A DNA stretch of 64,000 nucleotides from an uncultured Bacilli bacterium (GTDB taxonomy: Bacteria > Bacillota_I > Bacilli_A > RF39 > UBA660): assembly GCA_944329425.1 (NCBI GenBank), contig CALVIG010000003.1, positions 51,460-115,459 on the forward strand. Direction: 5' to 3'. The translations under genes and the position numbers were made by a program. The notes below the pieces were generated by a model. That model was not told the DNA's origin. It saw only the letters and a list, made by a program, of their open reading frames with translations, and made no database searches. Positions 43,181-64,000 of this stretch are shown here, piece after piece (within the stretch, counting starts at the first letter, position 1; the number at the start of each line of letters is the position of its first letter).

Positions 43181-43245
43181 GAAGGGATATATATCCCTTT
43201 TGCCTATCTTTATTAATTAGGTATGATCTTTGACAACTTAATATT
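43181..43245 (+). promoter_or_regulatory. Conserved terminator hairpin plus TTGACA-containing 21-nt box downstream of sigma-like copy A
   Basis: Hairpin GAAGGGATATATATCCCTTT, then GATCTTTGACAACTTAATATT. The same arrangement, nearly identical, occurs at 55531-55611 after copy B. It lies about 80 nt upstream of the tail-collar gene. Confidence 0.4.
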
Positions 43246-43323
43246 ATTAATTTAAAAATGTCTAGTGAAATTCCAGTAGAAAAAATTTTATGATGAAGCT
43301 GTTAAAGAAAGGAGAATGATATT

Positions 43324-44466: not shown

Positions 44467-44855
44467 TGATAACCCTTCCCATTAAGGATCATTTAATTAT
44501 GCGAGCACTTAATAATTATTCTAATACTGTTTATGAACTTAATATTTTAAAAAGAAGATTAAATTTACTTGTAAATTATGAATCCGAAATTGCTTTGGAA
44601 AAAAATAGGTTAATAAATTTAATAGATAACGAACAACAGGTGATAAAGCAAATGGAAAATGATTTACAAAATTTATCTGGTATTGAAAATAAACTGTATT
44701 ATGAAATTGTTATTAATGGTACTAACGTAACAAAGGCAATAGATAAAGTAGCAACAAATGAATTTATTGATACTTCAACTTTATGGAAAAATTATTATCC
44801 TAAAGTAAAAAAAGAAATAGATAAATTATATCTACTATTATCTAAAGAAAATTAA
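44448..44855 (+). CDS. Hypothetical protein (possible fibre chaperone/accessory), translationally coupled
   Basis: Overlaps the 3' end of the previous gene. 135 aa. No recognisable family. Confidence 0.35.
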   Translation: MEKGILMITLPIKDHLIMRALNNYSNTVYELNILKRRLNLLVNYESEIALEKNRLINLIDNEQQVIKQMENDLQNLSGIENKLYYEIVINGTNVTKAIDKVATNEFIDTSTLWKNYYPKVKKEIDKLYLLLSKEN

Positions 44856-44875
44856 ATATAGAAAGGAGATTAGCA

Positions 44876-47800
44876 ATGAAAGAAATAGAGTTAATTGGAA
44901 AACGAAAAGCAAGAGAAAAACATTTCTTAAAAGAAAATGGAATAATAACAGCTAATGTCTATGATGAAGATATTCATTTTTTAAAAGATGGAAAATATGA
45001 AGAGATTGATAATACACTTATTGAGGAAAATGGCTATTTAGTAAATAAAAATAATGCGTATAAAGTTTCTTTTGCAAAGAAAAGTAAAGATGAACTAATG
45101 GAAATGAGTATAGGTAATAATTATATTAAAACAATGTTGGTTTATCAAAAAGAAGTGGATTTAAAAGAAAATATTACTCAGTCCAAACTTCACAAAAACG
45201 TATGTTATCCTAATATAATAGAAAATGTTGATTTAGAATATAATATTATGCCTGGAAAGGTAAAAGAAGCAATTATATTAAAAAATAAAAATGTTGATTT
45301 AGAAAAATTAGTTTTCATAATTGAAACAAACACAAAATTAGAATTAAAGGAAAATAAAAAAATTATTTCAACGGTAGACAATAATAATTGTTTCGAATTT
45401 GACGCACTTTATATGATAGATGCTAACTTTAAAACAAATAATAATATTAATTATAAATTAACTAAAAGAGATGATGATATATATCAACTTGAATTAATTG
45501 TTGACAAAGAATGGTTAAATAATGAAGAAACAAAATATCCAGTAATAATTGATCCAACAATAACAAATTCCGGTCAGAACAATAGTGTCTATGATACTTA
45601 TATTTATCCTGGTGATACTGGAGTTGATAGAAATAGTCAAGATATTTTAAAAGCAGGGGTTGAAAGAATTGATGGCGTTGATAGGGAAAATAGAACGTTA
45701 ATAAAATTTGATTTGCCTGTAATAGGTACCGGTAGTCAAGTAATAGGTGCCAATTTACAGTTATATGGTTATCCAAAAATACCTTCAGATAGTGAAACAG
45801 ATTTGTTGTTGGCTCATAGAATCACCACAAATTGGGATGAAAGTACTGCTACATGGGATAATATGAATGACAAATTTGATCCGTTGGTTGAAGGTTTAAT
45901 ATTTGTTGGAAGAGGATACTATGATTTTGAAAACGAAACTATTCATCCATTTAATTGTGGTGGTGATATTACTAGATTAGTGAGAAAATGGTACACAGGA
46001 ACGCCTAATTATGGTATTATGTTGAAACAAAATCTATTGAAGTATAATGCAAATATATTACCAGCATTTTATTCAAACAATAATAATTCTACTGGTATAA
46101 ATCCTAAGCCTGTATTATCTATATCATATAGAAATCAAAATGGAATAGAAAATTATATGAATTATCAGACAAAAGGTTTTTATGATGGCGAAGCATATGT
46201 CAATAACTATAATGGAAATTTGACCACAATATTTGATATTGGTTCAACAATAAGTGGAAAAATGCCAATTGGTTTAAATCTTATATATAATACAAATGAT
46301 GTTGTGTTAGAAAAAAATTATGGTTATGGATTAGGGTATAAATTAAATTTACACCAAACTATAAAAGAACAACTTATTGATTCTAAAACATATTTAGAGT
46401 ATTGTGATGAAGATGGTACTTTACATTATTTTTTAAATGAAAAAGCTATGTTTGATGAAAATGGTTATAATATCATTAATACACAAAACATTTATTATGA
46501 TGAAGATGGGTTGGATATGACTATAACAAAAAATAGTAATAGTTATGTGCTTAAAGATAAAAATGGAAATACTATGACATTTATTAAAAATGGTGATAAA
46601 GCATATTTAACTAAGATAGAAGATGTTAATGGTAATAAAAATACTATTGAATATAGTCCTGAGAATGCAATAGTAAAAATAATAGATGCTAATGATAATG
46701 AAATAAATTTAGAATATGGTGCAACTACAATAACTATAATAAGTCCAGAACAAACAGTTACTTTAAGTTATTTAAATAACCAAGTAGTCAGTATAAATAG
46801 TTTAACAGGAATAACTCAATTCGAATATAATGCAAATAATATTATATCTAAAATTATTGATATTGATGGTATGAAAACTACTTATGATTACTATGATCAA
46901 AAACCATACAAAGTAAAAAAAGTATCTGAATATGGTGCTGAAAATACTTTGGGAGAATATTTTGAGATGTTGTATGATTTTGATTCTACAACTATAGTAG
47001 ATTCAAAAGAAAACGCAAAAAATATTATATTTAATTCTCAAGGTAGTGTAGTATCAATTAGTGGTTTGAAGGATAAGGATGATATAAAAAATTCGTATGG
47101 GCTTAGCCAAATAAATGGCACATCTGGAATTACCATTAATAATGGAAACAATAATAAATTATTAAGAACAGAGATACCACTTAAATATGTTAAAAATTTA
47201 TTATCTAATACAAGTTTTGAAAAAAATGTAATTAATTTTACTAGTACAGAAGATGTTAATATGATTATAACTAATGAAACCTCGGAAACAGGTGCTAATA
47301 GTTTAAAAGCTACTAGTACAATTAATAATCAAGCATTAACACAAAGTATAGATGTAGAAAAAGGTGATTATTATACATTTAGTAGTTATATTAAAAATAC
47401 TGGTGATGTTAAATTAATTCTTAGTTACTTTGACAAGAATGGGATTATTATTCAATCTCAAAGTGAATTAATAAAGCCGAGTGATGTTTTTGAAAGATAT
47501 GATGTAACAATAAAGTATCCTGAAGATGCAACAAGTAATTTAACTTTAAAAATAATTTTAGAAGATGCTGGAACAGTATATGTTGATGATGTACAGTTGG
47601 AAACCGGTGAAGTTGCAAATAATTATAATTTATTAGAAAATTCAGATTTTTCTAATGGTTTCTCTGATTGGGAGGTTTCAGCTAGTGATAATTTAACAGG
47701 TGATTTATTATCTATAAATGATGTATTTGAAATTGTTTCTTTGCCAGACAATTTAAACGCACTTAAAATAAAAATGAATCCTGCTTATAATTATATTATG

Positions 47801-50800
47801 GAAAAAACATATAATATAAGTGGAAAAGGCGGAGATGTATTTAATCTTTCATTTTGGTATAAAAATGAAGGTGTAGATTCAGATTTATCAGAGTATTATG
47901 GAAGCAGACCATATATTATTTTTCATTATACAAATCAAGAAGATGGACATTGCATTATTCCTACACCGTTACTTAATATAAATGATCAATCATGGCAATA
48001 TGTTTCGAATGATTTTACTGCTGAAAAAGATTATAGTTCTATTACGATTAGTATTCAACATCAATATACTGCAAATGATTTTTATATTACAAATATGAGT
48101 TTATTTAAAGATATAAGAAATGTTTATTATGAGTATGATGAATTTGGAAATGTAATATTAGAAAAAAATTTAGATGATAATAGTAATAAATATAATTATG
48201 ATAAAGATAATAAATTGATTCAGATGACTAATCCAAAAGGCAAAAATTTTACTATTGAATATGATAATATTTTTAAAAATAGGACTATCAATGGTATGAC
48301 TGATATGGGGGTATCTAATCAATTAAAATATGACAATAATAATAATCCAATTATATCTAGGGTTCAAAAAAATAATATTATAGGTGATATAACAGATGGT
48401 TTATATAAAATAAGATTAAAGGGAAGCGATATATATTTAAGAAATATATCAAATGATATTAAATGTAAATTAGAAAACTGTAACCATGATATATGGAAAT
48501 TAGAAAAGATAGATGAATATGTTAAAATCCATCACTCTATTCTTACTGATAAATATTTTACTGTTCAGAATAATAATATTATTTTATCAAATGAAAATGG
48601 AGATAATTCACTATTTAAGTTGAAGAAAAATAAAAACGGAAGTTATTCTATAAAATTAAAACTAGAGGATAAATACTTAAAATATAATAATTCAGGAATA
48701 GAAATATCAACTTTGATAGATGAAGATTACAGTTTTGAATTTTATTTTGAAACTGTAGATTGTGATTTATTTATTGAAAATAAAGCGGAGTATACAGAAA
48801 ATGGTGCGTTTATAAGTCGAATAATTGATTCATTAAATCATTCTTATAATTATGAAATTGATCAGGAAAAAGGTTTGACTAAATCAGAAACAAACGAAAA
48901 AGGTATTAAAACTAATTATAATTATAATTCTAAAAAGAAACTTATTTCATCTATATGCAACGATAAAAGTGTATTTTATGAATATAATGATAAAAATTTG
49001 TTAAGTAAAGTTAAGCATGGTAAGAAAGAATATAATTTTATTTATGATGAATTTTCTAATGTTAAGACAATAAAAATGGGTAATAATATTAGGCTTATTA
49101 CATATAATTATGATACAAATGGAGATTTGATTTTATTAGATTATGGGAATGAAGGCTCTCTAAATTATGAGTATGACGAATTTTCTAGATTAAGTAAAAA
49201 AACTAAAGAAAATGATACCTATGAATATAAGTATAATGGAAGTGGAGATTTGGTAAAAATTTTATCAAATAATTACATAACTAAATATACTTATGATTTA
49301 GCTAAAAGATTGAGTAAATATAATTTTGATGATTTTATAATTAAATATAAATATGACTCAAATGAAAATATAACGAATATTAAGTATAGTTTGGGTAGCA
49401 TAAATAATGAAATAATAAATACTTTTAATGATGATGATTTGATAATTAATACGTCATTTTCAAATAAAAAAATAAATTATACCTATGATTTACTAGGTAG
49501 ATTAAAAAGTGAAAAAATAAACAATATATATGAAACAAGTTATGAATATATAGAGAATGGAAAAAATACTTCTACTCTATTGAAAAAGCTTAAAACAGGT
49601 AATAATATATATTCATACAAATATGATAAATTAAATAATTTAACGCATGTTTATTATAATGACGACTTATTAACTAAATATTATTATGATGACTATAATC
49701 AGCTTATAAAGGAAATCGATTTTGAAGATAAAAAAATTATAAAATATAAATATGATAATGTAGGTAATATGTTATACAAAAAAGTATATGCTTTGGATAC
49801 CTATGACTTTATTACCCAAGATATATATTATTACAATAATGATGATTGGCAAGATCAATTAACTTCGTTTAATAACACCGCTATTACTTATGATGAAATA
49901 GGGAATCCATTAACTATAGGTAATAATATTAATCTAAACTGGATTAATGGTAGAGAACTAGAAACTTATAATGATGGTACTAACCTAATTTCGTATAAAT
50001 ATAATTCTGAAGGTATAAGAATAAGTAAAAAGGTGAATAACACGGAAACGAAATATTATTTAGAGGATAATGATATAATATTTGAAAAGAGAGGAAATAA
50101 TGTGCTATACTATTTACGTAATGATATAGATGATTTGTTTGGATTTATGTATAATAACGATTTATATTATTATGTAAAAAATAATAAGAATGATATTGTA
50201 GGTATATTAGATAACAGTTATAATATAGTAGCTAAGTATAAATATGATTCTTGGGGAAAAGTAATTTCTATAACTGATAGTCAAGATAACGATATATCAA
50301 ATAATGTTAATAATATAGGAAATATAAATCCGTTTAGATATAGATCTTATTATTATGATTCAGAAACTAAATTATATTATTTAAATAGTAGATATTATAA
50401 TCCGGAATGGAAAAGATTTATTAATCCTGATTCTTATGCTGGACAAATTGGTGGAAATATATTACTTCACAATATATATATATATTCTTTAAATAATCCT
50501 ATTTTATATAGCGATGAAAGTGGTAATATAGTAGGATTAACATCAGTAGCTGCGGGTGTGTTATACGCTTTTGGAATTGCTGTATTTAAAGCTTCTGTGT
50601 ATGTAGCTGTTAGTGGTTTAGTTGTTGGGGGCTCTATTTATGTGGGAAAAGCCATATCCAATAATAAAAGTAAATCAAAATCAAAGACGAAAGCACAAAG
50701 TAAATCTAAAATAAAAACTGCTGTGGCTGCAAAAGCAAAAACTAGTACAAAAAAATATTCGAACAACAATAAGCCATGTACAGAAGCCTATTTTACAAAA

Positions 50801-51079
50801 GATATGAGAGATGTTGTACGTGGTGAAAGATTAACAATTGAAGAAACAATTGCAAAAGTTAATGCTAAGGGAAATGTTATGTGTGATAATTATTGGCCCG
50901 CTAAAGAAGTTGCTACTGCCATTTCTCCAAATCCAATATGTGAAATAAATAGCATTCAGCATAAAGGATATAAATATTACTATCACTTTCATCCAAATAG
51001 AGATACTTATAAGGATGTACATATATTCTTTGAAGGATTACCATTAGAATTTTTTGAAGGGAAGGGAAATTGTAGATGA
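44876..51079 (+). CDS. Rhs/YD-repeat polymorphic toxin (2067 aa): DNRLRE-like domain, CBM-like and ricin-B-like lectin modules, YD repeats, RHS core, variable C-terminal toxin domain
   Basis: RBS GAAAGGAGA. Dozens of YD-type repeats (e.g. YKYDSNENITNIKY, YTYDLLGRL). RHS core end motif FRYRSYYYDSETKLYYLNSRYYNPEWKRFINPD...NIYIYSLNNPILYSDESGN. N-terminal region with DNRLRE-like segment (DRENRTLIKFDL). No signal peptide. Confidence 0.85.
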   Translation: MKEIELIGKRKAREKHFLKENGIITANVYDEDIHFLKDGKYEEIDNTLIEENGYLVNKNNAYKVSFAKKSKDELMEMSIGNNYIKTMLVYQKEVDLKENITQSKLHKNVCYPNIIENVDLEYNIMPGKVKEAIILKNKNVDLEKLVFIIETNTKLELKENKKIISTVDNNNCFEFDALYMIDANFKTNNNINYKLTKRDDDIYQLELIVDKEWLNNEETKYPVIIDPTITNSGQNNSVYDTYIYPGDTGVDRNSQDILKAGVERIDGVDRENRTLIKFDLPVIGTGSQVIGANLQLYGYPKIPSDSETDLLLAHRITTNWDESTATWDNMNDKFDPLVEGLIFVGRGYYDFENETIHPFNCGGDITRLVRKWYTGTPNYGIMLKQNLLKYNANILPAFYSNNNNSTGINPKPVLSISYRNQNGIENYMNYQTKGFYDGEAYVNNYNGNLTTIFDIGSTISGKMPIGLNLIYNTNDVVLEKNYGYGLGYKLNLHQTIKEQLIDSKTYLEYCDEDGTLHYFLNEKAMFDENGYNIINTQNIYYDEDGLDMTITKNSNSYVLKDKNGNTMTFIKNGDKAYLTKIEDVNGNKNTIEYSPENAIVKIIDANDNEINLEYGATTITIISPEQTVTLSYLNNQVVSINSLTGITQFEYNANNIISKIIDIDGMKTTYDYYDQKPYKVKKVSEYGAENTLGEYFEMLYDFDSTTIVDSKENAKNIIFNSQGSVVSISGLKDKDDIKNSYGLSQINGTSGITINNGNNNKLLRTEIPLKYVKNLLSNTSFEKNVINFTSTEDVNMIITNETSETGANSLKATSTINNQALTQSIDVEKGDYYTFSSYIKNTGDVKLILSYFDKNGIIIQSQSELIKPSDVFERYDVTIKYPEDATSNLTLKIILEDAGTVYVDDVQLETGEVANNYNLLENSDFSNGFSDWEVSASDNLTGDLLSINDVFEIVSLPDNLNALKIKMNPAYNYIMEKTYNISGKGGDVFNLSFWYKNEGVDSDLSEYYGSRPYIIFHYTNQEDGHCIIPTPLLNINDQSWQYVSNDFTAEKDYSSITISIQHQYTANDFYITNMSLFKDIRNVYYEYDEFGNVILEKNLDDNSNKYNYDKDNKLIQMTNPKGKNFTIEYDNIFKNRTINGMTDMGVSNQLKYDNNNNPIISRVQKNNIIGDITDGLYKIRLKGSDIYLRNISNDIKCKLENCNHDIWKLEKIDEYVKIHHSILTDKYFTVQNNNIILSNENGDNSLFKLKKNKNGSYSIKLKLEDKYLKYNNSGIEISTLIDEDYSFEFYFETVDCDLFIENKAEYTENGAFISRIIDSLNHSYNYEIDQEKGLTKSETNEKGIKTNYNYNSKKKLISSICNDKSVFYEYNDKNLLSKVKHGKKEYNFIYDEFSNVKTIKMGNNIRLITYNYDTNGDLILLDYGNEGSLNYEYDEFSRLSKKTKENDTYEYKYNGSGDLVKILSNNYITKYTYDLAKRLSKYNFDDFIIKYKYDSNENITNIKYSLGSINNEIINTFNDDDLIINTSFSNKKINYTYDLLGRLKSEKINNIYETSYEYIENGKNTSTLLKKLKTGNNIYSYKYDKLNNLTHVYYNDDLLTKYYYDDYNQLIKEIDFEDKKIIKYKYDNVGNMLYKKVYALDTYDFITQDIYYYNNDDWQDQLTSFNNTAITYDEIGNPLTIGNNINLNWINGRELETYNDGTNLISYKYNSEGIRISKKVNNTETKYYLEDNDIIFEKRGNNVLYYLRNDIDDLFGFMYNNDLYYYVKNNKNDIVGILDNSYNIVAKYKYDSWGKVISITDSQDNDISNNVNNIGNINPFRYRSYYYDSETKLYYLNSRYYNPEWKRFINPDSYAGQIGGNILLHNIYIYSLNNPILYSDESGNIVGLTSVAAGVLYAFGIAVFKASVYVAVSGLVVGGSIYVGKAISNNKSKSKSKTKAQSKSKIKTAVAAKAKTSTKKYSNNNKPCTEAYFTKDMRDVVRGERLTIEETIAKVNAKGNVMCDNYWPAKEVATAISPNPICEINSIQHKGYKYYYHFHPNRDTYKDVHIFFEGLPLEFFEGKGNCR

Positions 51080-51804
51080 TAATAAGAGATAAAGTGACTG
51101 GTGATTTATATAAAAATTTAATGAATTATATTATTTCAAAAAGTGACGTTTTATCAGTATCAGTAAATCTTATTTATAATAAGAAAGTTACGGATAAATT
51201 TATGAAAATTATTACATATAATAATGAGTATGATATTAATAATATTCTAAATGATGTTCCTAAAAAACTAATAGAGGAAATTTCTGAGGAAAACAAGAAT
51301 AATACTTTAATTTTTGATGAAGAATATATAAATAATGAAAAAAGATATTTAATAAAATATATTCAAAATTTTTCAGAAGATGATAGGGTATCTCTCATAT
51401 ATAAAAGAAGAAAAACTTATATAAAAAATATGATTTATTGGCTAGTTTATGAATATAAAACAACTAATTGGTTACGTAAATTTAAAACTAGTATTATTTA
51501 TAAAAAGCGTAAAAATTCATCGTATACTACTTATTATCTCAATCTGACGAAGGATTTAATAGATGATATCCTTAGCAGAAATTCATTTGATGATTGGAAT
51601 TTTCCATTATCTGTTGAAGATATTGCATTTTTTAAGGATAAACAATGTTTATTATGTTCAGAAACTCATGAAAATATGTGGGATTTATATTGTAAAGATC
51701 AAAATGAATATAAGTATTTTAAATCTATTGGTATTAAATTTAATGATTTTAAATATAAATCAGAAGGAAAAAAAGGATTACCTTACAATAATTATTATAT
51801 TTAA
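51076..51804 (+). CDS. Putative cognate immunity protein of the Rhs C-terminal toxin
   Basis: Start overlaps the Rhs stop (ATGA). Cytoplasmic 242-aa protein with no homology recognised. The position is typical for Rhs immunity genes. Confidence 0.45.
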   Translation: MIIRDKVTGDLYKNLMNYIISKSDVLSVSVNLIYNKKVTDKFMKIITYNNEYDINNILNDVPKKLIEEISEENKNNTLIFDEEYINNEKRYLIKYIQNFSEDDRVSLIYKRRKTYIKNMIYWLVYEYKTTNWLRKFKTSIIYKKRKNSSYTTYYLNLTKDLIDDILSRNSFDDWNFPLSVEDIAFFKDKQCLLCSETHENMWDLYCKDQNEYKYFKSIGIKFNDFKYKSEGKKGLPYNNYYI

Positions 51805-51908
51805 TTAGATTTAGGTATTATTAATTTGAACTTTAACTCTAAAATTTGCAAAAGGCATTTTGATCGAGTTATCATTATGTCTTTTAATATTTTTCAAAAG
51901 GAAAAATT

Positions 51909-52208
51909 ATGATAAATTTTATAATAAATTATTGGATTGAGATATTATTGACGTCTATTACATCAGGAATTATATATATTTTTAAACAATATATGGGTTT
52001 AAAAAACGGAATGAAATCTCTTTTAAGAAATGAAATAATAAGAATATATGATAATCAAGAAAAATTAGGATATTGTCCTAGTTATATGAAAGAGAACATT
52101 AAAGAAATGTATGAAAACTACCATAAATTAGGTGGTAATGGAATGGTTACAAAAATGACTAATAAATTATATGAATTACCAAATGTAAAGGAGGATGATA
52201 AAGTATGA
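51909..52208 (+). CDS. BhlA/UviB-like holin-family protein (N-terminal transmembrane helix plus coiled region)
   Basis: 99 aa. Single N-terminal transmembrane segment. First gene of a three-gene overlapping cassette that ends in a lysin. Confidence 0.35.
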   Translation: MINFIINYWIEILLTSITSGIIYIFKQYMGLKNGMKSLLRNEIIRIYDNQEKLGYCPSYMKENIKEMYENYHKLGGNGMVTKMTNKLYELPNVKEDDKV

Positions 52209-52432
52209 AAGAAAAATTGATTTTATCTATTATTAATTTACTTAAAGTAAAATCAATAATAACGCTACTTACATTTGTAGCGTTCTTTTATTTATCTATT
52301 TCAGAAAAAATAGGTAGCGATAATTTTATGCTGATTATAGGAATGATTGCGACTTATTTCTTTAATAAAGATAATTCTGAAAAATTAAAAAATAAATCTA
52401 TGGAAGTGGTAAAAGATGAGCAAGATAACTAA
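52205..52432 (+). CDS. Small two-transmembrane holin-like protein
   Basis: 75 aa. Two hydrophobic helices and a charged C-terminus (KDEQDN). It overlaps both neighbours (ATGA-type coupling). Confidence 0.45.
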   Translation: MKEKLILSIINLLKVKSIITLLTFVAFFYLSISEKIGSDNFMLIIGMIATYFFNKDNSEKLKNKSMEVVKDEQDN

Positions 52433-53153
52433 CTTAATATTTAAAAATGCTAATCATTATGTAACATCTGGCTTTGGTAATAGAAAAGTAATGAATACCA
52501 AAGGAGGCTATACAAGTTCTTTTCATAATGGAACAGATTATGGGACAAATAATGTTAAATTACCACAATATGCTATTGAAAATGGAACTGTATTAAGTTG
52601 TGGTACGGATTCTTTAGGAGGAAAATTTGTTTGGGTTAAATATCCTAGAATAAATGTTAAAATGCTTCATTATCATTTATCTAGTGTTAATTGTAAAACT
52701 AATCAAATAGTATCTAAGGGAACACTTTTAGGATATACTGGTATGAGTGGTAAGGCAACAGGTATTCATTTGCATTTGTCTATTGTTGATCTATCTAATG
52801 GAGAGTTTTTGAATCCTGAGACGTATTCTTATACTGAACAAAGTGAAACATCTGTGCCTGTAATTAATAATTCATTTTTTGGTAATAAATCATATTTTAA
52901 GCGTGGTGATTCATGTGACAATATAGGTAAAGTATGTTATTTTTTTGCAGACTATTTTTATGGATATTTTTGTAAAACTAAAGAGGAGGCTCATAAGTTA
53001 TTAGATGGTAATCTATTTGGACCATATCTTGAGAAATGGGTAAAAGAGTTTCAAGAAAGAGCTAAAGCAGAGGGAAGGTATTATGATAACATTGATGGCT
53101 ACATTGGACCTAAAACTTTAAAAACTTTAGAAAGCTATGGGTTTATTTATTGA
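52416..53153 (+). CDS. M23-family peptidoglycan endopeptidase with C-terminal PG_binding_1 domain (endolysin-like)
   Basis: HNGTDYG ... GMSGKATGIHLHLSI (HxxxD/HxH zinc motifs of LytM/M23). C-terminal ...YYDNIDGYIGPKTLKTLESYGF is the peptidoglycan-binding repeat. No signal peptide. Confidence 0.75.
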   Translation: MSKITNLIFKNANHYVTSGFGNRKVMNTKGGYTSSFHNGTDYGTNNVKLPQYAIENGTVLSCGTDSLGGKFVWVKYPRINVKMLHYHLSSVNCKTNQIVSKGTLLGYTGMSGKATGIHLHLSIVDLSNGEFLNPETYSYTEQSETSVPVINNSFFGNKSYFKRGDSCDNIGKVCYFFADYFYGYFCKTKEEAHKLLDGNLFGPYLEKWVKEFQERAKAEGRYYDNIDGYIGPKTLKTLESYGFIY

Positions 53154-53284
53154 TTAATAAAGGGGTACAAATTATTATTTTGTATCCTTTTAAAATATTC
53201 ATATTTACTAAAATAATTAAATATGATAATATAAACTTATAAAATGTGTTGATTAGCAGTAAATAATATTTATTAGGAGAAATC

Positions 53285-54058
53285 ATGACAAAGAGATTAA
53301 AACTATTTATAATAATTACTGTATTATTAATTATAATAATATTTATTTTCAGATTATTTCCTTTTGGATATAATCAATATAAAATTAGCTTGGATTTAAG
53401 TAAAATTACTTTGCCTAAATTTTCATATGATATTAAACAGGAACAAAAAGGTATAATAACTTTTAAATCACATAGAAGTAAATTTATAATTCAAGATGAA
53501 ATAAATGATATGTTTGAATCTTATGATAAATATATTTGTAATAACAAAGTGTATTATTATGATAAAAATCATAATATAACATTTATGGATTATGAAATCT
53601 CAAATAGATTTTTTACTAATAATATTAAATTAATATATCATAGTGGTAAATTTAGTGATAATGAATGTGCAAAAGTATTTGATTATAAACAAATGGATTA
53701 CAGAATTATCCCGGTTAATAGCACAGGTCATTGTTATATTAAAGAAGATAAGTTTGAATATAGAGATGAAAATAATGAATTACATAATGTGTATTATGAA
53801 TGTTTTGGTAATTTAGCATTTAAAAATGGAATGAATAAAATGGAATATATTGATAGAGTTTTATTTTTTAGATGGATTTCTATGAAGGACATAATTAATT
53901 ATTTAAATTATAAAACAAAAGATAAAACTTTTATGAAAAAAATAATAGATAAAAAACATACGTTATATTATAATAATGATTTTTATTTGTTGAAGTGTAA
54001 TAATAAAAATATATATATAGGTGAAAAGTATGATGAATTTAAAAGTTATTGTAATTAA
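53285..54058 (+). CDS. Hypothetical protein with N-terminal transmembrane anchor
   Basis: ORF with RBS AGGAGA. Extremely AT-rich. No family recognised. Confidence 0.35.
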   Translation: MTKRLKLFIIITVLLIIIIFIFRLFPFGYNQYKISLDLSKITLPKFSYDIKQEQKGIITFKSHRSKFIIQDEINDMFESYDKYICNNKVYYYDKNHNITFMDYEISNRFFTNNIKLIYHSGKFSDNECAKVFDYKQMDYRIIPVNSTGHCYIKEDKFEYRDENNELHNVYYECFGNLAFKNGMNKMEYIDRVLFFRWISMKDIINYLNYKTKDKTFMKKIIDKKHTLYYNNDFYLLKCNNKNIYIGEKYDEFKSYCN

Positions 54059-56081: not shown

Positions 56082-56373
56082 TATTAATTAGTAAAAAAAT
56101 ATTATGATTAAAAAGTTTTGCATACATATAAATAGGAGGAAGATAATGTGAATGAAGTTGAATATAATGTTAATGTTTTTGTAAATAAAAATGGTTATAA
56201 TTCAAAAGATAAGAAAATAATTGAAAAAAAATTTAATCAAAAATTATTAAAGATAATTATTTCTATAGAAAAAAATAAAGTTTGTCAAGTTTAAAAAAAT
56301 AAAAAAAGTATAATTTATATTTTTAAAAATTTATTTTAGTATTAATTTGCAAGAAAGGAGGGTGCTTTCTATA

Positions 56374-57984
56374 ATGAAGAATAGAGTTGATATATATACA
56401 AGACTTTCCGATGAAGACAGATATAAAAAAAATAAAAGTGATGATAGTGAATCTATAGCTAACCAGAAAAGCATGTTATTAAAATATGCGTTAGAGCAGG
56501 GCTGGGAAGTAATAAATGTTTATAGTGATGATGATTATTCCGGTGCTGATAGTAATAGACCACAATTTCAAAAACTTTTAAAGGATTGTGAAAATGGCGT
56601 TGTTGATATAGTGCTTTGCAAAACCCAGAGTAGGTTTTCTCGTGATATGGAAGTCGTTGAAAGGTATATACATAATAAATTTATTGAATGGGGAGTACGC
56701 TTCGTTAGTATTGTTGATAATGCAGATACTGCAAATAAAGGCAATAAAAAATCTAGGCAAATTAATGGCCTTGTAAACGAATGGTATTTAGAAGATTTAT
56801 CAGATAATATTAGAAATTCATTGCAAAACAGAAGAGAAGATGGTTTATTTTTAGGATCTTTCGCTCCATATGGTTACATTAAGGATCCGGATAACAAAAA
56901 CAAGTTATTAATTGATCCCATTGCTGCTGAAATAGTAAGAGAAATATTTAACTTGTATAAATCCGGAGTTGGTTATTATAATATTGCCACAACTTTAAAT
57001 AAAAGAGGCGTTTTAACACCTTCTAATTATAAAAAAGAAAATGGTAGTAAATATGTATGCGGGAAAGCACGATTTAAAGAGAAAACAAAATGGTCTCAAG
57101 ATACGATTGCTAAAATATTAAGAAATGAAGTTTATATAGGTAATTTAGTGCAAGGAGTAAAAACTTATGTAAGTTATAAAAATCATAAATCTTATATTAA
57201 GCCTAAAAATGAATGGACTTATTCTTATGGTACACACGAACCTATAATAGATATGGAAACGTGGAATATGGTTCAATCTAAATTTAGATCTAGGACAAGA
57301 GTTAGTAGAACAACAGGTGAAGTATATTTGTTAAGTAAGAAGATTTATTGTAAAGAATGTGGTGGTGTATTTAATAGACAAATTTATCACACAAAAGACG
57401 GAAAAGTTCCATATATGAAATGTAAGGGAGTAAAGCTAGCTAATCGTGATTGTTCTAATAGGGAATCAATAAGATGTGAAAAAGTTGAAAAAATAATATT
57501 AGATGAATTGAATAAACAATTAGACTTATATTATAATGTTGATGAATTAGAAAGGTTATATGTTTTGCAAAAAAAATCTTTGAATAGTAGTACTTTATTA
57601 AAGAAAGAAACTTTAAATAATGAAAAACAAATATTACAGGAAAAAGTCGATAAAAAAAATGAACATTATAAAGCTTTATATGAAGATAAATTGGAGGGAA
57701 TAATTACGCAAGAAGACTTTATAATGTTTAGAGAAAAATTTTTAAATGAAATTGAAGAATATAAAAATAGAATCAAAATTATTGACGAGGAATTGAAATC
57801 GTTAAAATCGGAAGAAGAAAATGTTGAATCGAGCAGAGAAGTTTTTGAAAAATATAGACATATTAATAAACTTACAAAAGAAATTGTTGATGAATTTGTT
57901 GATGTTGTTAAAATAGGTAAAATAAATAAAGAAGATAATAGTAGAGATATAGATATTCATTTGAATATCATTAATTTAGATTAA
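56374..57984 (+). CDS. Large serine recombinase (resolvase/invertase N-terminal catalytic domain, recombinase domain, zinc ribbon, coiled-coil)
   Basis: N-terminal VDIYTRLSDEDR...IANQKSML (catalytic Ser region), YSGADSNRPQFQKLL, a C-terminal Cys cluster (CKECGG...CKG...C) and a long coiled-coil. The ATG at 56374 with RBS AGGAGGG is the preferred start. The stop lies 20 bp from the att core. Confidence 0.85.
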   Translation: MKNRVDIYTRLSDEDRYKKNKSDDSESIANQKSMLLKYALEQGWEVINVYSDDDYSGADSNRPQFQKLLKDCENGVVDIVLCKTQSRFSRDMEVVERYIHNKFIEWGVRFVSIVDNADTANKGNKKSRQINGLVNEWYLEDLSDNIRNSLQNRREDGLFLGSFAPYGYIKDPDNKNKLLIDPIAAEIVREIFNLYKSGVGYYNIATTLNKRGVLTPSNYKKENGSKYVCGKARFKEKTKWSQDTIAKILRNEVYIGNLVQGVKTYVSYKNHKSYIKPKNEWTYSYGTHEPIIDMETWNMVQSKFRSRTRVSRTTGEVYLLSKKIYCKECGGVFNRQIYHTKDGKVPYMKCKGVKLANRDCSNRESIRCEKVEKIILDELNKQLDLYYNVDELERLYVLQKKSLNSSTLLKKETLNNEKQILQEKVDKKNEHYKALYEDKLEGIITQEDFIMFREKFLNEIEEYKNRIKIIDEELKSLKSEEENVESSREVFEKYRHINKLTKEIVDEFVDVVKIGKINKEDNSRDIDIHLNIINLD

Positions 57985-58004
57985 TTACCTTGCTAACACG
58001 TATC

Positions 58005-58270
58005 CTGGACATGGAGGATCTGATCCAGGCGCATCAAATGGTGATATTATTGAAAAAGATTATACTTTAAAAATATCTAATTACATGTATGATAGGTTTA
58101 AAGATTTGGGTATACCGGTGGTTATAACTAGAACAACGGATAAAACTCTTAATCCAACAGACAGGGTAAATGTTATTAAACCCAACATAACTAGTAAAGA
58201 TGATATAGTTATTTCTAATCACTTAAATGCCGGAGGTGGCGAAGGTCAAAGTGTAACAATAAATGTATAA
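58005..58270 (+). pseudogene. 3' fragment of the cwlC-type Amidase_3 gene (start-less), resuming at ...PGHGGSDPGASNGD
   Basis: The frame is open from the element junction with no start codon. It contains GHGGSDPGA, VITRTTD, and HLNAGGG (the H.NAGGG zinc-ligand region), then stops prematurely shortly after. Confidence 0.6.
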
Positions 58271-58309
58271 CAATTAAAGCCTAAATATAGAAAGAAATGA
58301 GGAAATGTT

Positions 58310-58660
58310 ATGAATATTAGTTACACTAGAAAAGGTGATTATTTATTACCTAATTTGATATTAGAAAATAAAGAACAATATAATATAAGAAAATATGGAT
58401 TATTAAGATTAGATTATATTAAAAATAATAAGAAAAGTTTATACATTAAATTACTTATGAATGATGAATTAAATAAATATTTACATGATATAGATGAATT
58501 AGTAGAAGATAAAGTAAATGAATTAATAAAGATACTTGCTGAAAAAGAAAATATAAATGAAGAAATGAAATGTAATCAACAATTACTATGGATAAAAAAT
58601 ATGAATAATATAAAAAATAGAGCTGAAGAAATTATATTAAAGGAGTATATCTATGTGTGA
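58310..58660 (+). CDS. TnpV-like transposon-encoded protein (Tn4451 TnpV family)
   Basis: N-terminus MNISYTRKGDYLLPNLIL and C-terminal LWIKNMNNIKNRAEEII resemble TnpV proteins, which pair with large serine recombinases. Confidence 0.45.
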   Translation: MNISYTRKGDYLLPNLILENKEQYNIRKYGLLRLDYIKNNKKSLYIKLLMNDELNKYLHDIDELVEDKVNELIKILAEKENINEEMKCNQQLLWIKNMNNIKNRAEEIILKEYIYV

Positions 58661-58952
58661 TATAACAGAAAAAGAATGGAATCAAAAATATTTACCTTTT
58701 TATCATAATTTCAGTAAGTATATGATTAATTACATTATTCCTGATGTAGTAGCTTTTTATATAGCTAATAGTTATAGTAGAAAATGTTTATGTGATTCAT
58801 CGCTTTATAATCATATTAATTCTGCAAAAGATGTATTTAATGTAAGCTGCGATACAAAAAAATTAATACCTAAAATCGAAGAAATATTAAGAATAAAATA
58901 TAATCTAAAAATAGTAAATAATAATCCATTAAGATTAAAAAGATGTTATTAA
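58653..58952 (+). CDS. Hypothetical protein
   Basis: ORF overlapping the tnpV-like stop. No family recognised. Confidence 0.3.
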   Translation: MCDITEKEWNQKYLPFYHNFSKYMINYIIPDVVAFYIANSYSRKCLCDSSLYNHINSAKDVFNVSCDTKKLIPKIEEILRIKYNLKIVNNNPLRLKRCY

Positions 58953-59368
58953 AGAAATTAACGCTATCTGAAATATGATAGTGTTTTTTGTTTATGTGAG
59001 TATATTTATTGTCTAGCCAGCACTGAATTTCTACTCCCGTACGAAATTCTTTTGTGGGAAATGTCCCAAGCCCTATTTTTAAAATTAAAAATTTGTAAGT
59101 ATTTCAATGCCAAAATTAAAATTTTGTCAAATTATATGGTATAATAATATCATATTGGTTTTGATACTACGAAAAACAATAGGATCAACTAGGATATTAA
59201 TTAATTTGTAATTTTTATAGTTTGTTAAGCTTTATTTATTAATAGTGTGGTATTAAAAAAAATTAAAATTATACTTATTGCTAAAAAAGATTATTTAAAT
59301 TCTTTTTTGTTGAAATAGCTTATTTTAATAAATAATAAATTGAAAAATAGTTATTAGGAAGTGATATA

Positions 59369-61474
59369 ATGGCTAATAAAAATACTAACTTGCAAAACGC
59401 AAAAAAAGCAAAAGATGATGAATTTTATACGAGATATGAAGATATTTATAACGAAGTAATTCAATATAAAAAACATTTTAATAATAAAATAGTTTTGTGT
59501 AATTGTGATGACCCGTTTGAATCAAATTTCTGCAAATTTTTTTTGAAAAATTTTAACGTATTGAAGTTAAAAAGATTGATTTGTACAACTTATTATTGTT
59601 CAAAAATTGTTTCTAAAGAATTTGAATTTTTAAAAAAGGAAAAGAAGAAAAACAAAAAGTATGGATATGTTTTAGACGTCACCAAGTTTTCAAATATTAA
59701 TGGAGAAATTCCTGATGAAATAATTTATGATTTCCTTAAAAAAGCAGATTGTATAAAAAGATTAAATGGTGATGGAGATTTTCAAAGTGATGAGTGTATT
59801 GAGTATGTAAAATTATCAGATATAATTGTAACAAATCCACCTTTTTCCTTGTTTAGAGAATTTGTATCTATTATTACAAAATATCAAAAAAAATTTTTAA
59901 TAGTAGGTAATCAAAATGCATTGACTTATAAAGAAATTTTCCCACTAATAAAAAATGATAAGATATGGACTGGTTTTCAATTTGGTGAGATGAAATTTAG
60001 AGTTCCAAAAACATCAAAACCAAGAACAACTAGATATTGGGTTGATGAGTCTGGTCAAAAGTGGAGAAGTCTTGGTAATGCCATGTGGTTAACAAATATT
60101 GATAACGAAAGAAGACATAGACAAATAAATTTAACGAAAAAATATGATCCCAATGAATATCCTAAATATGATAATTATGATGCTATTAATGTAAAAACTA
60201 TAAATGATATACCTTATGATTTTTATGGAATAATGGGGGTACCTATAACGATTATAAATAGATATAATAGTGAACAATTTGAGATAGTTGGTGAGGCTAA
60301 TCATGGCTCTGATAACGAATATGATTTATTTAAACCAATATTAAATGGTAGGGAACTATATAAAAAAATTTTGATTAGAAGAAGAATCAAAGATGTAAAA
60401 ATAAAAGAGTTTTTGATTTTAGATTTATTTAGTGGGGCAGGTGGATTTTCGTACGGAATGGAAAAAAATCCTCATTTTAAAACAGTAGTAGCTCTAGATT
60501 TTAATAAATATGCATTAGATACTTTTAAAAGTAATATGCCAGATTCAGAAATCATATGTGGTGATATTACTAATGACGAAATAAAAGAGCAGGTTATTAA
60601 AATAAGTAGAGAAAAAAAAGTAAATATGATTATTGGTGGGCCCCCATGTCAGGGGTTCTCGTTGAAAGGAAAGAAATTAGGTTTGGATGATCCTAGAAAT
60701 TATTTATTTAGTGAGTATTTAAAAATAGTTGAAGCATTAAAACCGGAAGTTTTTATTATTGAAAATGTCAAGGCTTTATTGTCAACATCGGCTGGATGGT
60801 TTAAGAATCAAATAATTGAAAAAGTCTCTAAAATGGGATATTTTATTGAATGTGGAATATTGACAGCATCAGATTTTGGCGTTCCACAATCCAGGCAAAG
60901 AGCAATATTTATATGTTCAAAAAATAAAAAAATATCGCTTCCTAGTGCAACTGTTAAAAATAAAGTGACAGTTAAAGATGCAATTTATGATTTGGCGTTC
61001 CTTAATTCTGGAGAAGGAGATTTCGAACAAAATTATCAATTATCAGTGACTAGTAAATATCAAAAAGATATGAGAAAAGGTTGTAAAAAATTATATAATC
61101 ATCAAGCTTCTAATCATGCAAAGATTGCAATACAAAAATTAGAAATGATTCCACCAGAAGGTGGGAAAGAATTTTTACCAAAAGAAATGTTAGGAAAACA
61201 AAAATATAGTGGAACATGGGGGAGATTAAAATGGGATGATGTTTCTCCAACTATTGATACTAGATTTGATGCAGCATCAAATGGAACAAATAATCATCCG
61301 TTTTTAAATAGGGCAATAACTCCTAGGGAAGCAGCAAGATTACAATCTTTTGATGATAAATTTATTTTTTTAGGATCAAAAGTGCATGTTAGAGAACAAA
61401 TAGGGAATGCTGTTCCCCCTCTATTGGCAAAGGCAATAGCAGATAAAATATATATGGAATTAGGTGATGAATAA
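59369..61474 (+). CDS. Fused DNA methyltransferase: N-terminal EcoRI-methylase-type N6-adenine MTase domain plus C-terminal C5-cytosine MTase domain
   Basis: N-terminus NAKKAKDDEFYTRYEDI...IVLCNCDDPFESNF...IIVTNPPF (EcoRI methylase family blocks plus the NPPF motif). C-terminal half has FSGAGGF (motif I), GGPPCQGFS (PCQ, motif IV), ENV (VI) and QIGNAVPPLLA (X). Confidence 0.85.
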   Translation: MANKNTNLQNAKKAKDDEFYTRYEDIYNEVIQYKKHFNNKIVLCNCDDPFESNFCKFFLKNFNVLKLKRLICTTYYCSKIVSKEFEFLKKEKKKNKKYGYVLDVTKFSNINGEIPDEIIYDFLKKADCIKRLNGDGDFQSDECIEYVKLSDIIVTNPPFSLFREFVSIITKYQKKFLIVGNQNALTYKEIFPLIKNDKIWTGFQFGEMKFRVPKTSKPRTTRYWVDESGQKWRSLGNAMWLTNIDNERRHRQINLTKKYDPNEYPKYDNYDAINVKTINDIPYDFYGIMGVPITIINRYNSEQFEIVGEANHGSDNEYDLFKPILNGRELYKKILIRRRIKDVKIKEFLILDLFSGAGGFSYGMEKNPHFKTVVALDFNKYALDTFKSNMPDSEIICGDITNDEIKEQVIKISREKKVNMIIGGPPCQGFSLKGKKLGLDDPRNYLFSEYLKIVEALKPEVFIIENVKALLSTSAGWFKNQIIEKVSKMGYFIECGILTASDFGVPQSRQRAIFICSKNKKISLPSATVKNKVTVKDAIYDLAFLNSGEGDFEQNYQLSVTSKYQKDMRKGCKKLYNHQASNHAKIAIQKLEMIPPEGGKEFLPKEMLGKQKYSGTWGRLKWDDVSPTIDTRFDAASNGTNNHPFLNRAITPREAARLQSFDDKFIFLGSKVHVREQIGNAVPPLLAKAIADKIYMELGDE

Positions 61475-62349
61475 TGAATACAGAAATGGCATATTTGTTA
61501 GGAATGATTTTGGGAAATGGTGAAATACAACAAGGAATTAATGAAACGGTTGTTACAATAGATATTCCTCATAAAAATTTATACACAGATGATGAGAAAG
61601 ATGTTAGAGTATATGTTAAGGCTAGTTTAATGGATATAAGACAAATAGTAGAACCATTGATAGGGACTGATATTAGCTATACACAAAGTAGAAAATCTAC
61701 TTCTATTTCATTCAAAAAGTCAAACGCCGAATATGTAATGCGGCAAATCTTACATTATGTAGGTAATGGAAGCAAGCATGCATATATGGAAATGAATGAT
61801 GATTTATTTAATATAAAAAAAGATGAGAAGAAAGCACTTTTAAGAGGAATGGCTGATGTTACTGGGTACATTCGTAGGAGTAATTTGGCTTATGGAGTAG
61901 CAGGAGCACATCGTGTGTATATTGAAATACCTTGTAATTGGAAGATGGTAATTGATGTTGCAAATCTTTTAAAAGATATTGATGTTCCTATTCAAAATAT
62001 AGATTTTGGACATCCAAACTTTCGAGATAGTAATTTAAAAAAGTATAATTCAGGCCAAAAATTATATTGGAAAAAAGAACATCAAATTAAAATATACGCA
62101 AATGAATTTTTACCAATTGGATTTAGTATTAGTCATAAACAAGAAGCTTTGATAAAATATAGTAAAGAATTGCTTAATCACATGAGTCCAGAAACAACAC
62201 ATAAATTTTATTGGCAAAAAAATAATAAAGTAAACAAAATTAAGCCAATACATCCTGGTGAAAATGATAGCTCTTTGCCTACGTCAATACGTGGTAAACA
62301 TTATAATTCATGGACTGAGTTAGCAAAGGATTTGGGATATCATGAGTAA
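61474..62349 (+). CDS. Hypothetical protein with two LAGLIDADG-like motifs (candidate endonuclease)
   Basis: AYLLGMILGNGEI and LLRGMADVTGYI resemble the duplicated LAGLIDADG helices. The start overlaps the MTase stop. Confidence 0.3.
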   Translation: MNTEMAYLLGMILGNGEIQQGINETVVTIDIPHKNLYTDDEKDVRVYVKASLMDIRQIVEPLIGTDISYTQSRKSTSISFKKSNAEYVMRQILHYVGNGSKHAYMEMNDDLFNIKKDEKKALLRGMADVTGYIRRSNLAYGVAGAHRVYIEIPCNWKMVIDVANLLKDIDVPIQNIDFGHPNFRDSNLKKYNSGQKLYWKKEHQIKIYANEFLPIGFSISHKQEALIKYSKELLNHMSPETTHKFYWQKNNKVNKIKPIHPGENDSSLPTSIRGKHYNSWTELAKDLGYHE

Positions 62350-62836
62350 TGTTGCATTAGAAATAGAATTGTATGAGCCAATGAGAATTTGGTTTCAACA
62401 ATATTTAGAAGATAAATATAAAAATGCTGAAATAATTACAGTAGATGCTCATGCAAGAACCTTAGATAGTTACTTGCAAAAATATGGCGTTTTAAAATAT
62501 TATCCTTTAACAATCGGATTGAATATTCAAATAGATGTTTTAGGTATTATAAAACAGAAAAACAAAGTGTCATTAGCTTTTATTGAGGCCAAAAAGACCC
62601 AATTAAATTTACATGATTTGGGGCAGCTATGGGCATATTGCAAGTTATGCGACCCACAAGAAGCATTTTTGCTATCTTCACAAGGGTTAGGTAGTTTAAA
62701 TAAAATATTCAATCATTTATTGAGAGAAGATTTACTTGATTTTGGAGATGGAAAATTAATTAAAAAGATGAAAGTAGGTAAATGGGACATTCTGACAAAC
62801 AGTATAGATTATAACTCATTAATACCAAAAATATAA
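62342..62836 (+). CDS. Hypothetical protein with PD-(D/E)xK-like nuclease motif
   Basis: IQIDVLGII...(13 aa)...FIEAKKT fits a D...EAK nuclease core pattern. Overlaps the upstream gene. Confidence 0.3.
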   Translation: MSNVALEIELYEPMRIWFQQYLEDKYKNAEIITVDAHARTLDSYLQKYGVLKYYPLTIGLNIQIDVLGIIKQKNKVSLAFIEAKKTQLNLHDLGQLWAYCKLCDPQEAFLLSSQGLGSLNKIFNHLLREDLLDFGDGKLIKKMKVGKWDILTNSIDYNSLIPKI

Positions 62837-62929: not shown

Positions 62930-64000
62930 ATGCAGTATAATATTTTTAGAGTAAAAGATGAAAAAGGGCTTTTAGAGGAAATGAAAATAAAAAATTACAT
63001 TAAAAGTAATAATGAAAAAAAGGTAGATAATTATAAACTGTCATTATATTATTGTAAAAATGACAGTTCAAAAATATCATGGCAAAACATATTAAATGAG
63101 TTTAATGTTGATATAACAATAGATAAAGATAATTTGAAAGGGATATTATTAATATCTTCTGATATAGATTTTTATGCAGTTACATATGGTATGAGTAGTT
63201 CATTAGTGCAAAAGTATTGCGATACAGATTTTGCGATGAATATCGCTAAACGTGTAGAAGTTTCAAAAATAAAAAGAAAAGCAGCAAAGTTTTTAAATGG
63301 AAGTACTAGCAGTTTAGTAAAAACTATGTCTAATGCAAACATAATTGTTTTGGATAGAGGAGAATCTGTTGTTAATTTAGAAATTATACCTGATGAGTCT
63401 GAAAATTTAGGGAAGTGTATTATTATTGGAAAATCCTTAAAATTAAATCTAGATAAAAATATTGATAATATATCTGAAATTATATCAATAATAAAAAATA
63501 TTGAGAATAGAGAAGATAAAAGACCGATACCATTATTCGTAAAAGTGACTGATGATGACTTAAAATCTAGAATATGGGATTCATTAAATTCTGAGTTTAT
63601 GAAAAATATAAAAAACATTAATTTTTCACTTGATGAAATGAATGTTTTGGGGAGTTCAATATATTTTGATGATAATTTTAGATTAGAGTTAGCATATTTA
63701 AATAAAAAAGAAGAAATATCAATTTTAAGTACTGATATAGTGAGAAATTTTATTGAAAAAAATGATATAAAAATCGATAAAGTTTTAGATTATATAAAGA
63801 TAAAATATATTTCTGATAGTGGTAATTTTGTACGTTCTTTAAAAGAAGTTGTAACTTTTGATTTTAGTTATGAGAATACAAATTACGTTGTTTATGATGG
63901 TGATATTTACTACTATAATGATGATTTTTATCAAAATATTAAAGATGGATTAAGATTGATAGAATTTAAACCATATGATAAAGTGGATGATAAAAGTATT
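62930..64000 (+). CDS. TIGR04141-family (sporadically distributed) protein, N-terminal about 357 aa (3' end lies outside the window)
   Basis: Open frame from ATG 62930 (RBS AGGAGG) to the window end. Sequence features (FYAVTYG, ...IVLDRGE...) resemble the TIGR04141 family that is common in defence islands. Confidence 0.4.
   Translation, partial: MQYNIFRVKDEKGLLEEMKIKNYIKSNNEKKVDNYKLSLYYCKNDSSKISWQNILNEFNVDITIDKDNLKGILLISSDIDFYAVTYGMSSSLVQKYCDTDFAMNIAKRVEVSKIKRKAAKFLNGSTSSLVKTMSNANIIVLDRGESVVNLEIIPDESENLGKCIIIGKSLKLNLDKNIDNISEIISIIKNIENREDKRPIPLFVKVTDDDLKSRIWDSLNSEFMKNIKNINFSLDEMNVLGSSIYFDDNFRLELAYLNKKEEISILSTDIVRNFIEKNDIKIDKVLDYIKIKYISDSGNFVRSLKEVVTFDFSYENTNYVVYDGDIYYYNDDFYQNIKDGLRLIEFKPYDKVDDKSI

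Follow-up and report, generated by a model that had tools for sequence, protein, structure and literature searches.

We analysed a 64,000-nucleotide (nt) stretch of DNA, here called the window, from an uncultured Bacilli bacterium (assembly GCA_944329425.1, contig CALVIG010000003.1, positions 51,460 to 115,459). On the plus strand of the window, at 59369..61474, lies the gene for a fused M1~M2 DNA methyltransferase of 701 amino acids (aa), in which an EcoRI-type adenine methyltransferase domain is joined to a Dcm-type cytosine methyltransferase domain. It is followed on the same strand by genes for a 291-aa protein (61474..62349) and for a 164-aa protein with the signature of a PD-(D/E)XK nuclease (62342..62836, 495 base pairs, bp). 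We suggest that these three genes probably make up a Type II restriction-modification operon of the IIS/IIT kind, in which the joined methylase is paired with a two-protein nuclease, and that the operon travels on a mobile element.

The fused methyltransferase and its operon

The methylase gene is a single uninterrupted open reading frame (ORF) with an ATG start, immediately preceded by the ribosome-binding site AGGAAGTGA. Its N-terminal, N6-adenine methyltransferase domain (aa 7-315; 59387..60313, plus strand) matches the Pfam family PF13651, EcoRI_methylase, at E=1.1e-119 and 400.2 bits, against a cutoff of 26.4. The C-terminal, C5-cytosine methyltransferase domain (aa 350-694; 60416..61450, plus strand) matches PF00145, DNA_methylase (E=1.6e-74, 251.7 bits, cutoff 22), as well as the NCBIfam model TIGR00675, dcm (E=1.2e-63, 215.8 bits, cutoff 100.65). 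Because the PF00145 match is collinear, running through profile positions 3-322 of 324, the cytosine methylase motifs stand in their canonical order, I to X, and by sequence match this half resembles the M.HaeIII and M.HhaI structures. Between the two domains there is a linker of aa 316-349 (60314..60415, plus strand), as judged from a comparison of the junction in fused and split relatives. The best explanation of these sequence matches is that the EcoRI-type domain would make N6-methyladenine (m6A) and the Dcm-type domain 5-methylcytosine (m5C).

When 28 fused homologues with 62-92% identity were aligned, three blocks of the m6A half were unchanged in all 28: DEFYT (aa 17-21), CNxDxP (aa 44-49) and NPPF (aa 156-159; nt 59834-59845, plus strand). 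The same held in the m5C half for FxGAGG (aa 354-359), GGPPCQGFS with the catalytic Cys427 (aa 423-431; nt 60635-60661, plus strand), ENV (aa 465-467), QxRQR (aa 507-511) and GNAVPP (aa 679-684). A first-pass annotation of this DNA had read the gene as one polypeptide fusing an m6A and an m5C domain. Our results bear this out, as one ORF carries both Pfam domains far above their cutoffs and every diagnostic motif then cited is present and unchanged across the homologues. That annotation also named two ways in which it might be wrong. The first, that the N-terminal domain belongs to a non-methylase family, is answered by the strength of the PF13651 match. The second, that a frameshift disguises two genes, is answered in the window by the uninterrupted ORF and by the 20 independently assembled contigs that encode an identical 701-aa protein; with the exact protein on so many contigs, the fusion is not a frameshift artefact of assembly.

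The first-pass annotation further held such fusions to be uncommon, and for this family that does not stand. The 120 clusters (at 90% identity) that scored best, reaching down to 69% identity, all consist of fused, full-length proteins of ~700 aa with both domains, and joined methylases belong to the standard picture of Type IIS/IIT systems (PMC4081073). Taken alone, the joining of the two methylases is nothing out of the ordinary and falls within a known class. A species-level scan, with one genome per species, gave 25 loci from uncultured Bacilli, Clostridia, Christensenellaceae, Bacteroidales and Prevotellaceae. Nine of these loci (L005, L008-L015) have the fused form, and in thirteen (L019-L031) two genes encode the domains. 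The split genes, of ~340 and ~359 codons, lie in different frames and meet in overlaps of 1-11 nt or across a 1-nt gap. The difference between the fused and the split state is confined to ~10 residues between '...FKRILIRRK' and 'F(R/K)ILDLFSGAGG', and the final ~10 residues of the linker stand where the relatives have the stop/start overlap of their two genes. Therefore, the fusion amounts to plain end-to-end joining of neighbouring M1 and M2 genes. Two of the loci carry broken genes: the m5C methylase gene of L025 (11026-12105) is split into two ORFs of 198 and 159 aa, and the 164-aa gene of L015 (12981-13470) has a frameshift. Either these copies of the system are decaying or the assemblies are in error.

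The three genes of the window are tightly packed. The methylase stop and the start of the 291-aa gene overlap by 1 nt (TAATG), and the end of the 291-aa gene overlaps the start of the 164-aa gene by 8 nt. The order methylase, 291-aa gene, 164-aa gene recurred in all related loci extending far enough, with identities of 50-100% for the 291-aa protein and 65-100% for the 164-aa protein, and among those loci we saw no fused methylase without both downstream genes. Searches that start from the methylase and from the 291-aa protein give the same linkage. A reverse search from the latter recovered the module on a 6.5-kb plasmid of Lactiplantibacillus plantarum (NZ_CP060181.1), in two gut phages (PV036410.1 and PV036447.1) and on three further contigs from metagenomes or metagenome-assembled genomes, and a megablast of window 56-64 kb against phage and plasmid collections gave no match. 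The plasmid, p9 of L. plantarum P9, provides a cultured carrier; a literature search for a published methylome of this carrier found nothing relevant. Since two conserved genes, one of them for a nuclease, always stand downstream, we take the methylase to be the modification arm of a complete restriction-modification system. The anti-restriction or phage-derived hypermodification function that had been offered as one possibility is contradicted by the same invariable linkage to two conserved genes, one of which encodes a PD-(D/E)XK nuclease.

Upstream of the operon is an AT-rich intergenic region of ~380 bp (58986..59368, plus strand), preceded by a terminator-like hairpin at 58960-58985. The promoter-like hexamers in it, at 59116-59153, are consensus matches only, in a sequence whose promoter count is no higher than that of shuffled sequence. 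Some relatives of the operon carry additional small genes. A conserved ORF of ~112 aa, not present in the window, lies between the methylase and the 291-aa gene in several of them (L014 12110-12445; L021 2487-2825; L024 3517-3858; L116 5657-5998). Its sequence follows the pattern …ECFIEAE…DDG…DANKWGLELRLYVR…LGFTHN.AYRNDFSYRLN…, and it has no Pfam match. In L115 (3331-3522), and also in L116 and L117, a 63-aa gene of the HTH_3 family stands directly upstream of the fused methylase and is a candidate for a controller (C) protein; the window has no HTH_3 gene upstream of its methylase.

The two downstream proteins and their wider family

Sequence and profile searches with the 291-aa and 164-aa proteins gave no match in Pfam, NCBIfam or the PDB sequences. 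The 164-aa protein nevertheless carries an invariant D65-X16-E82-A-K84 (plus strand; D65 at nt 62534-62536, E82 at nt 62585-62587, K84 at nt 62591-62593), and this PD-(D/E)XK signature is unchanged throughout its family. Its AlphaFold (AF2) model has a predicted local distance difference test score (pLDDT) of 79.6. In a Foldseek search the model came closest to PaqCI, a Type IIS enzyme (E=2e-3, prob 0.98); next in line were an XisH-like protein, EcoRI, BamHI, NgoMIV, MunI and FokI. The protein corresponds to little more than a bare nuclease core.

The AF2 model of the 291-aa protein (pLDDT 86.5; predicted template modelling score, pTM, 0.88) shows the succession alpha-beta-beta-alpha-beta-beta-alpha twice over, which is the LAGLIDADG order. 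All of the top 38 Foldseek matches in the PDB (38/38, E 1e-4 to 2e-2) have the LAGLIDADG fold, and they include bI3 maturase, I-DmoI, I-AniI, PI-SceI and WhiA. Among the viral structures of BFVD there were 51 matches at E<=1e-3, many of them unnamed; those with names were mostly LAGLIDADG/DOD homing endonucleases or proteins of kinds that typically host inteins, a few of which were expressly annotated with an intein/Hint domain. The N-terminal and C-terminal halves of the protein align with one another in the same register, though weakly (E=8.5e-4, prob 24%). Each half opens with a LAGLIDADG-like helix, AYLLGMILGNGE in the first (aa 6-17; nt 61489-61524, plus strand) and ALLRGMADVTGY in the second (aa 121-132; nt 61834-61869, plus strand). 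Neither canonical catalytic position is acidic: one is N15, mostly R in relatives, the other is T130 (T/A/G/S/C in the family), and none of 23 diverse members is acidic there. Other residues are invariant in the family, namely G125, D128, W156, H180-P-N182, E202-H203, E263 and H276; two of these groups fall in the family-invariant GHPN (aa 179-182; nt 62008-62019, plus strand) and in KEHQIK (aa 201-206; nt 62074-62091, plus strand). A profile of the 291-aa family had no match among PDB sequences, and PADLOC holds no model for this family or for its single-chain relatives. As no sequence profile matches, the LAGLIDADG assignment is a structural and predicted one and not homology demonstrated by sequence, and we describe the 291-aa protein as a predicted double LAGLIDADG fold that lacks the canonical catalytic acids.

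Only 309 relatives of the 291-aa protein emerged when 1.84 billion representative proteins were searched exhaustively with a profile. Many of them are ~545 aa long and consist of a 291-like region followed, in the same chain, by a 164-like nuclease domain; by hhalign this C-terminal domain is a homologue of the 164-aa protein (prob 99.1, E=1e-18). We took 80 metagenome loci of the ~545-aa type, 77 of which had mappable units. In 63 of the 77 units a small subunit (~165 aa, same fold) comes after the large protein, and two units (L103 and L106) have the window layout of separate 291-like and 164-like genes. At least 74 related loci encode the 291-like region and the nuclease domain in a single chain. 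The immediate-neighbour ORFs of the 77 units (149 examined) included 46 N6_N4 DNA methylases and 12 MT-A70 DNA methylases. A nuclease family that is linked to at least three types of methylase, and whose parts are naturally fused, therefore fits a restriction enzyme; neither a regulator nor an unrelated passenger would be expected to show this pattern.

The nuclease domain of the large subunit in these distant systems has D...ExK in 75 of 75 aligned sequences. Their small subunits (L033-L112) have a variant, D...N-R...E, in which E-x-K is replaced by N-R-(S/T) and a conserved Glu follows ~12 residues on. This pattern suggests a migrated-residue version of the PD-(D/E)XK site, and hence two different active sites per enzyme. 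Four other relatives (P0445, P0448, P0456 and P0474), of 990-1300 aa, have a C-terminal 291-like domain behind long N-terminal regions without a Pfam match, and in P0500 a fragment of an N6_N4 methylase is joined to a 291-like domain. These five proteins may represent further architectures of the 291-like recognition module.

The mobile element and its surroundings

The boundaries of the element that carries the operon are seen most clearly in a related locus, L005, in which a complete element of ~10.7 kb lies between the two halves of an amidase gene (5851-6153 and ~16885-17274). It contains TnpV, a 99-aa ORF, the restriction-modification genes, a DUF6119 gene, a helix-turn-helix (HTH) protein, a large serine recombinase and a Bro-N protein. 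The element sits in an Amidase_3 (N-acetylmuramoyl-L-alanine amidase) gene, which it interrupts at the conserved codons for GG(D/E)G, and it has inverted terminal repeats; both junctions carry GGTGGCGA(T/A)GGT, and the inverted-repeat ends are CATTGTGTAAC ... GTTACACTTTG. It resembles the gene-splitting 'skin'-type elements of Firmicutes. In the window, a 5' fragment of the Amidase_3 gene (58004..58275, plus strand) ends at the left junction of the element, between GGTGGCGAAGGT and CAAAGTGTAAC (~58262), and at the left end of the element come TnpV (58310-58660, plus strand; PF14198, E=2.6e-34) and the 99-aa ORF (58653-58952, plus strand), both conserved in L005-L008. The element's own large serine recombinase lies past the end of the window (in L001 at 14040-15623). 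Another locus, L118 (1717-2016), has an element of the same kind with a different cargo (Fic, AAA_21).

We considered whether the prophage-like region upstream might own the methylase and rejected this, as the boundaries in L005 place the module in a separate, amidase-inserted element. The DUF6119 gene that follows the operon (62930..64000, plus strand, cut by the window end) was likewise rejected as a fourth component of the module. Genes of this family, ~530 aa long, stand directly 3' of the nuclease genes in the closest relatives only (L001 11562-13157). A more distant DUF6119 gene occurs near the module in L115-L117 (L115 9047-10624), and in other phyla none is adjacent to the module; DUF6119 is therefore probably separate cargo of a defence island.

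A second large serine recombinase (56347-57984; Resolvase, Recombinase, Zn_ribbon_recom and DUF4368 domains) ends 20 nt before the amidase fragment, whose N-terminus begins at about residue 13 of the L005 homologue. This recombinase may mark another mobile element beside, or in, the 5' end of the amidase gene. Farther upstream, a block at 39810-54058 encodes a collagen-repeat/beta-helix protein (39810-40724), a NUDIX protein (40868-41917), a sigma-70 region-4 protein (42662-43147), a Gp10-like baseplate protein (43324-44466) and a 2067-aa RHS-repeat protein (44876-51079), followed by a 242-aa ORF that is possibly an immunity protein. The block also holds small holin-like ORFs and an M23 peptidase (52416-53153), and it may be a phage-tail-like or toxin-delivery region and not a plain prophage. 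The sole tRNA gene of the window, tRNA-Thr (CGT), is on the minus strand at 30058-30131; it has minus-strand neighbours, and the GC skew is inverted at 29-31 kb.

Proposed mechanism, alternatives and known systems

We propose that each methylase domain would modify one strand of a single asymmetric site, so protecting both strands of the host's own sites, and that the restriction enzyme would be made up of the products of the two translationally coupled downstream genes. The 291-aa protein, as an asymmetric double-LAGLIDADG scaffold that has lost its canonical catalytic acids, would read the target sequence, and the 164-aa PD-(D/E)XK protein would be the cleavage subunit recruited to it. Both strands might be cut by a dimer of the 164-aa protein, as with FokI, or through a second, unrecognised site in the 291-aa protein. 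We infer an asymmetric site with one domain per strand because the methylase combines two chemistries and the recognition protein is intrinsically asymmetric. The earlier suggestion of double protection of one or two target sites is near the likely truth when taken in this form, as one strand per domain of an asymmetric site, the assignment of strands being ours. To go further and regard the whole family as a catalytically dead LAGLIDADG scaffold that recruits, or is fused to, FokI-like PD-(D/E)XK domains, and so as undescribed restriction enzymes and the first LAGLIDADG-fold restriction-modification system, is a step for which we find the case evenly balanced.

Several points weigh against these proposals. 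All that is said here of target recognition, methylation and cleavage is prediction. The LAGLIDADG assignment comes from predicted structure, with Foldseek template modelling (TM) scores of only 0.35-0.6 and E-values of 1e-4 to 2e-6, and there was no significant match to a LAGLIDADG profile of Pfam: in a search reporting E<=10, one of the 23 diverse members reached LAGLIDADG_3, at E=0.12. LAGLIDADG proteins normally read long sites, which is awkward for an enzyme that has to agree with a pair of methylases acting on short ones. For the 164-aa protein, too, the fold matches are weak, though coherent in kind, the best Foldseek E-value being 2e-3, and the match of its family to the PADLOC model REase_II (PDLC03445) was marginal (E=1.3e-3, in 4 of 40 family members) and was not used as evidence. 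Finally, operons of the window type have one nuclease-domain gene where the distant relatives have two nuclease domains, and this leaves double-strand cleavage unexplained.

The last point bears on an alternative modelled on BtsI and BsrDI, which are heterodimeric Type IIS (IIT) restriction-modification systems (Xu et al. 2007, PMC1950550). Here the 291-aa subunit would both recognise the site and nick one strand through a non-canonical active site, for which D128, H180-P-N182, E202-H203, E263 and H276 are candidates, and the 164-aa subunit would cut the other strand. The architecture is close to that of BtsI, whose large and small ORFs measure 987 bp and 495 bp and which has two methylases, and the 164-aa gene is also 495 bp long. 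The small-subunit residues, D67/E82/K84 in BsrDI and D65/E78/K80 in BtsI, compare with D65/E82/K84 in the 164-aa protein, and the window-type operon has a single recognisable nuclease domain. Moreover, GHPN and KEHQxK are invariant down to ~25% identity, which would be unusual for residues that set specificity. However, the 291-aa protein lacks the PD-Xn-E-Xn-QR of the BtsI and BsrDI large subunits, its invariant residues fit no known nuclease motif, and relatives that already have two PD-(D/E)XK-type domains retain the same residues, which points to a role in structure or DNA contact. On balance we consider a nicking 291-aa subunit unlikely, yet worth keeping in view.

It seems quite improbable that restriction is the work of the 164-aa protein alone, as a small homodimeric enzyme, with the 291-aa protein regulating the operon, for instance as a WhiA-like controller. 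Restriction enzymes of ~160 aa, such as PvuII, do exist, and the structures matched by the 291-aa model include WhiA, a transcription factor whose LAGLIDADG fold is degenerate. However, the occurrence of the 291-like region and the nuclease domain as one polypeptide in so many loci would not be expected of a regulator and its target, some relatives already have a separate small upstream HTH gene as a controller candidate, and the 164-aa protein is essentially nuclease core only. An orphan, phage-derived or anti-restriction double methylase that shields mobile DNA, with unrelated genes downstream, would suit a module found on an integrative element, plasmids and temperate phages, but we can give this hardly any credence in view of the strict three-gene linkage with overlapping codons across phyla and element types, and of a downstream partner that is a nuclease.

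We therefore return to the two-protein nuclease with a LAGLIDADG-like recognition subunit, and to what it would mean. A review of Type II enzymes recognises the classes PD-(D/E)XK, HNH, GIY-YIG, PLD and half-pipe and contains 0 occurrences of LAGLIDADG (PMC4081073). Judged from reviews, with REBASE not covered, the nuclease architecture looks undescribed. If the proposal is true, a restriction enzyme that reads DNA with a LAGLIDADG fold would add a new recognition module, linking homing endonucleases to restriction-modification in a direction not seen before, and would be the natural counterpart of engineered chimeras of inactive meganucleases and nucleases. A small, separable recognition subunit with a 164-aa cleavage subunit would also offer a promising basis from which to develop new Type IIS or nicking enzymes. 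Firmicutes and Bacteroidales of the gut and rumen carry the module widely, and its vehicles are integrative elements, plasmids and phages. Therefore, it probably does hinder both gene flow and genetic manipulation in its carriers.

Among known systems, BtsI and BsrDI are the nearest characterised analogues of the nuclease. They share with the window operon two methylase activities, an asymmetric site (which for the window system we infer), and a large subunit of ~300 aa with a small one of ~164 aa, a comparison made by description only. The small gene has the same length in BtsI and here, and the small subunit has a canonical D...ExK at nearly identical residue numbers. They differ in having two separate amino-methyltransferases, whereas the window has an EcoRI-type m6A and an m5C domain in one chain, and in the N-terminal PD-Xn-E-Xn-QR site of their large subunits, which nicks the bottom strand; the 291-aa protein begins instead with a LAGLIDADG-like helix. 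Judged from reviews, the nuclease half of the operon would vary the heterodimeric Type IIS/IIT theme through a predicted recognition module that is new to restriction enzymes.

Alw26I, Esp3I, Eco31I, BsaI and BsmBI likewise combine adenine-N6 and cytosine-C5 activities for the two strands of an asymmetric site, whereas their nucleases are unrelated single-chain enzymes. M.Alw26I and M.Esp3I were reportedly described by Bitinaite and colleagues in 1992 as single bifunctional proteins. In Eco31I, separate m6A and m5C enzymes (M1/M2) serve the two strands of GGTCTC (PMC4659465). The m5C part of the Alw26I/Esp3I/BsmBI type is circularly permuted, with motifs IX-X ahead of I-VIII (PMC5944983), whereas in that of the window the motifs run collinearly from I (aa 354) to X (aa 679), and this rules out a methylase of their type. 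FokI and AlwI resemble the window protein in having two methylase domains in one chain, one for each strand, an arrangement thought to secure 1:1 synthesis and co-regulation (PMC4081073); theirs is m6A with m6A, whereas here it is m6A with m5C.

On the nuclease side, the LAGLIDADG homing endonucleases and their inactive derivatives (I-DmoI, I-AniI, bI3 maturase and WhiA) share with the 291-aa protein the predicted tandem alpha-beta-beta-alpha-beta-beta-alpha pseudo-dimer and two predicted glycine-containing LAGLIDADG-like helices at the domain interface. In contrast to the homing endonucleases, the 291-aa protein is non-acidic at both catalytic positions and lies outside any intron or intein; its gene sits in a methylase operon, where it is partnered, and in relatives fused, with a PD-(D/E)XK nuclease. 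A parallel to such a pairing has been engineered: fusions of inactive I-SceI to a restriction nuclease join a dead LAGLIDADG binding module to a separate PD-(D/E)XK cleavage module (Fonfara et al. 2012, PMC3258161). Those fusions are man-made and their PvuII module keeps its own specificity, whereas the window system would be a natural one, equipped with its cognate methylases.

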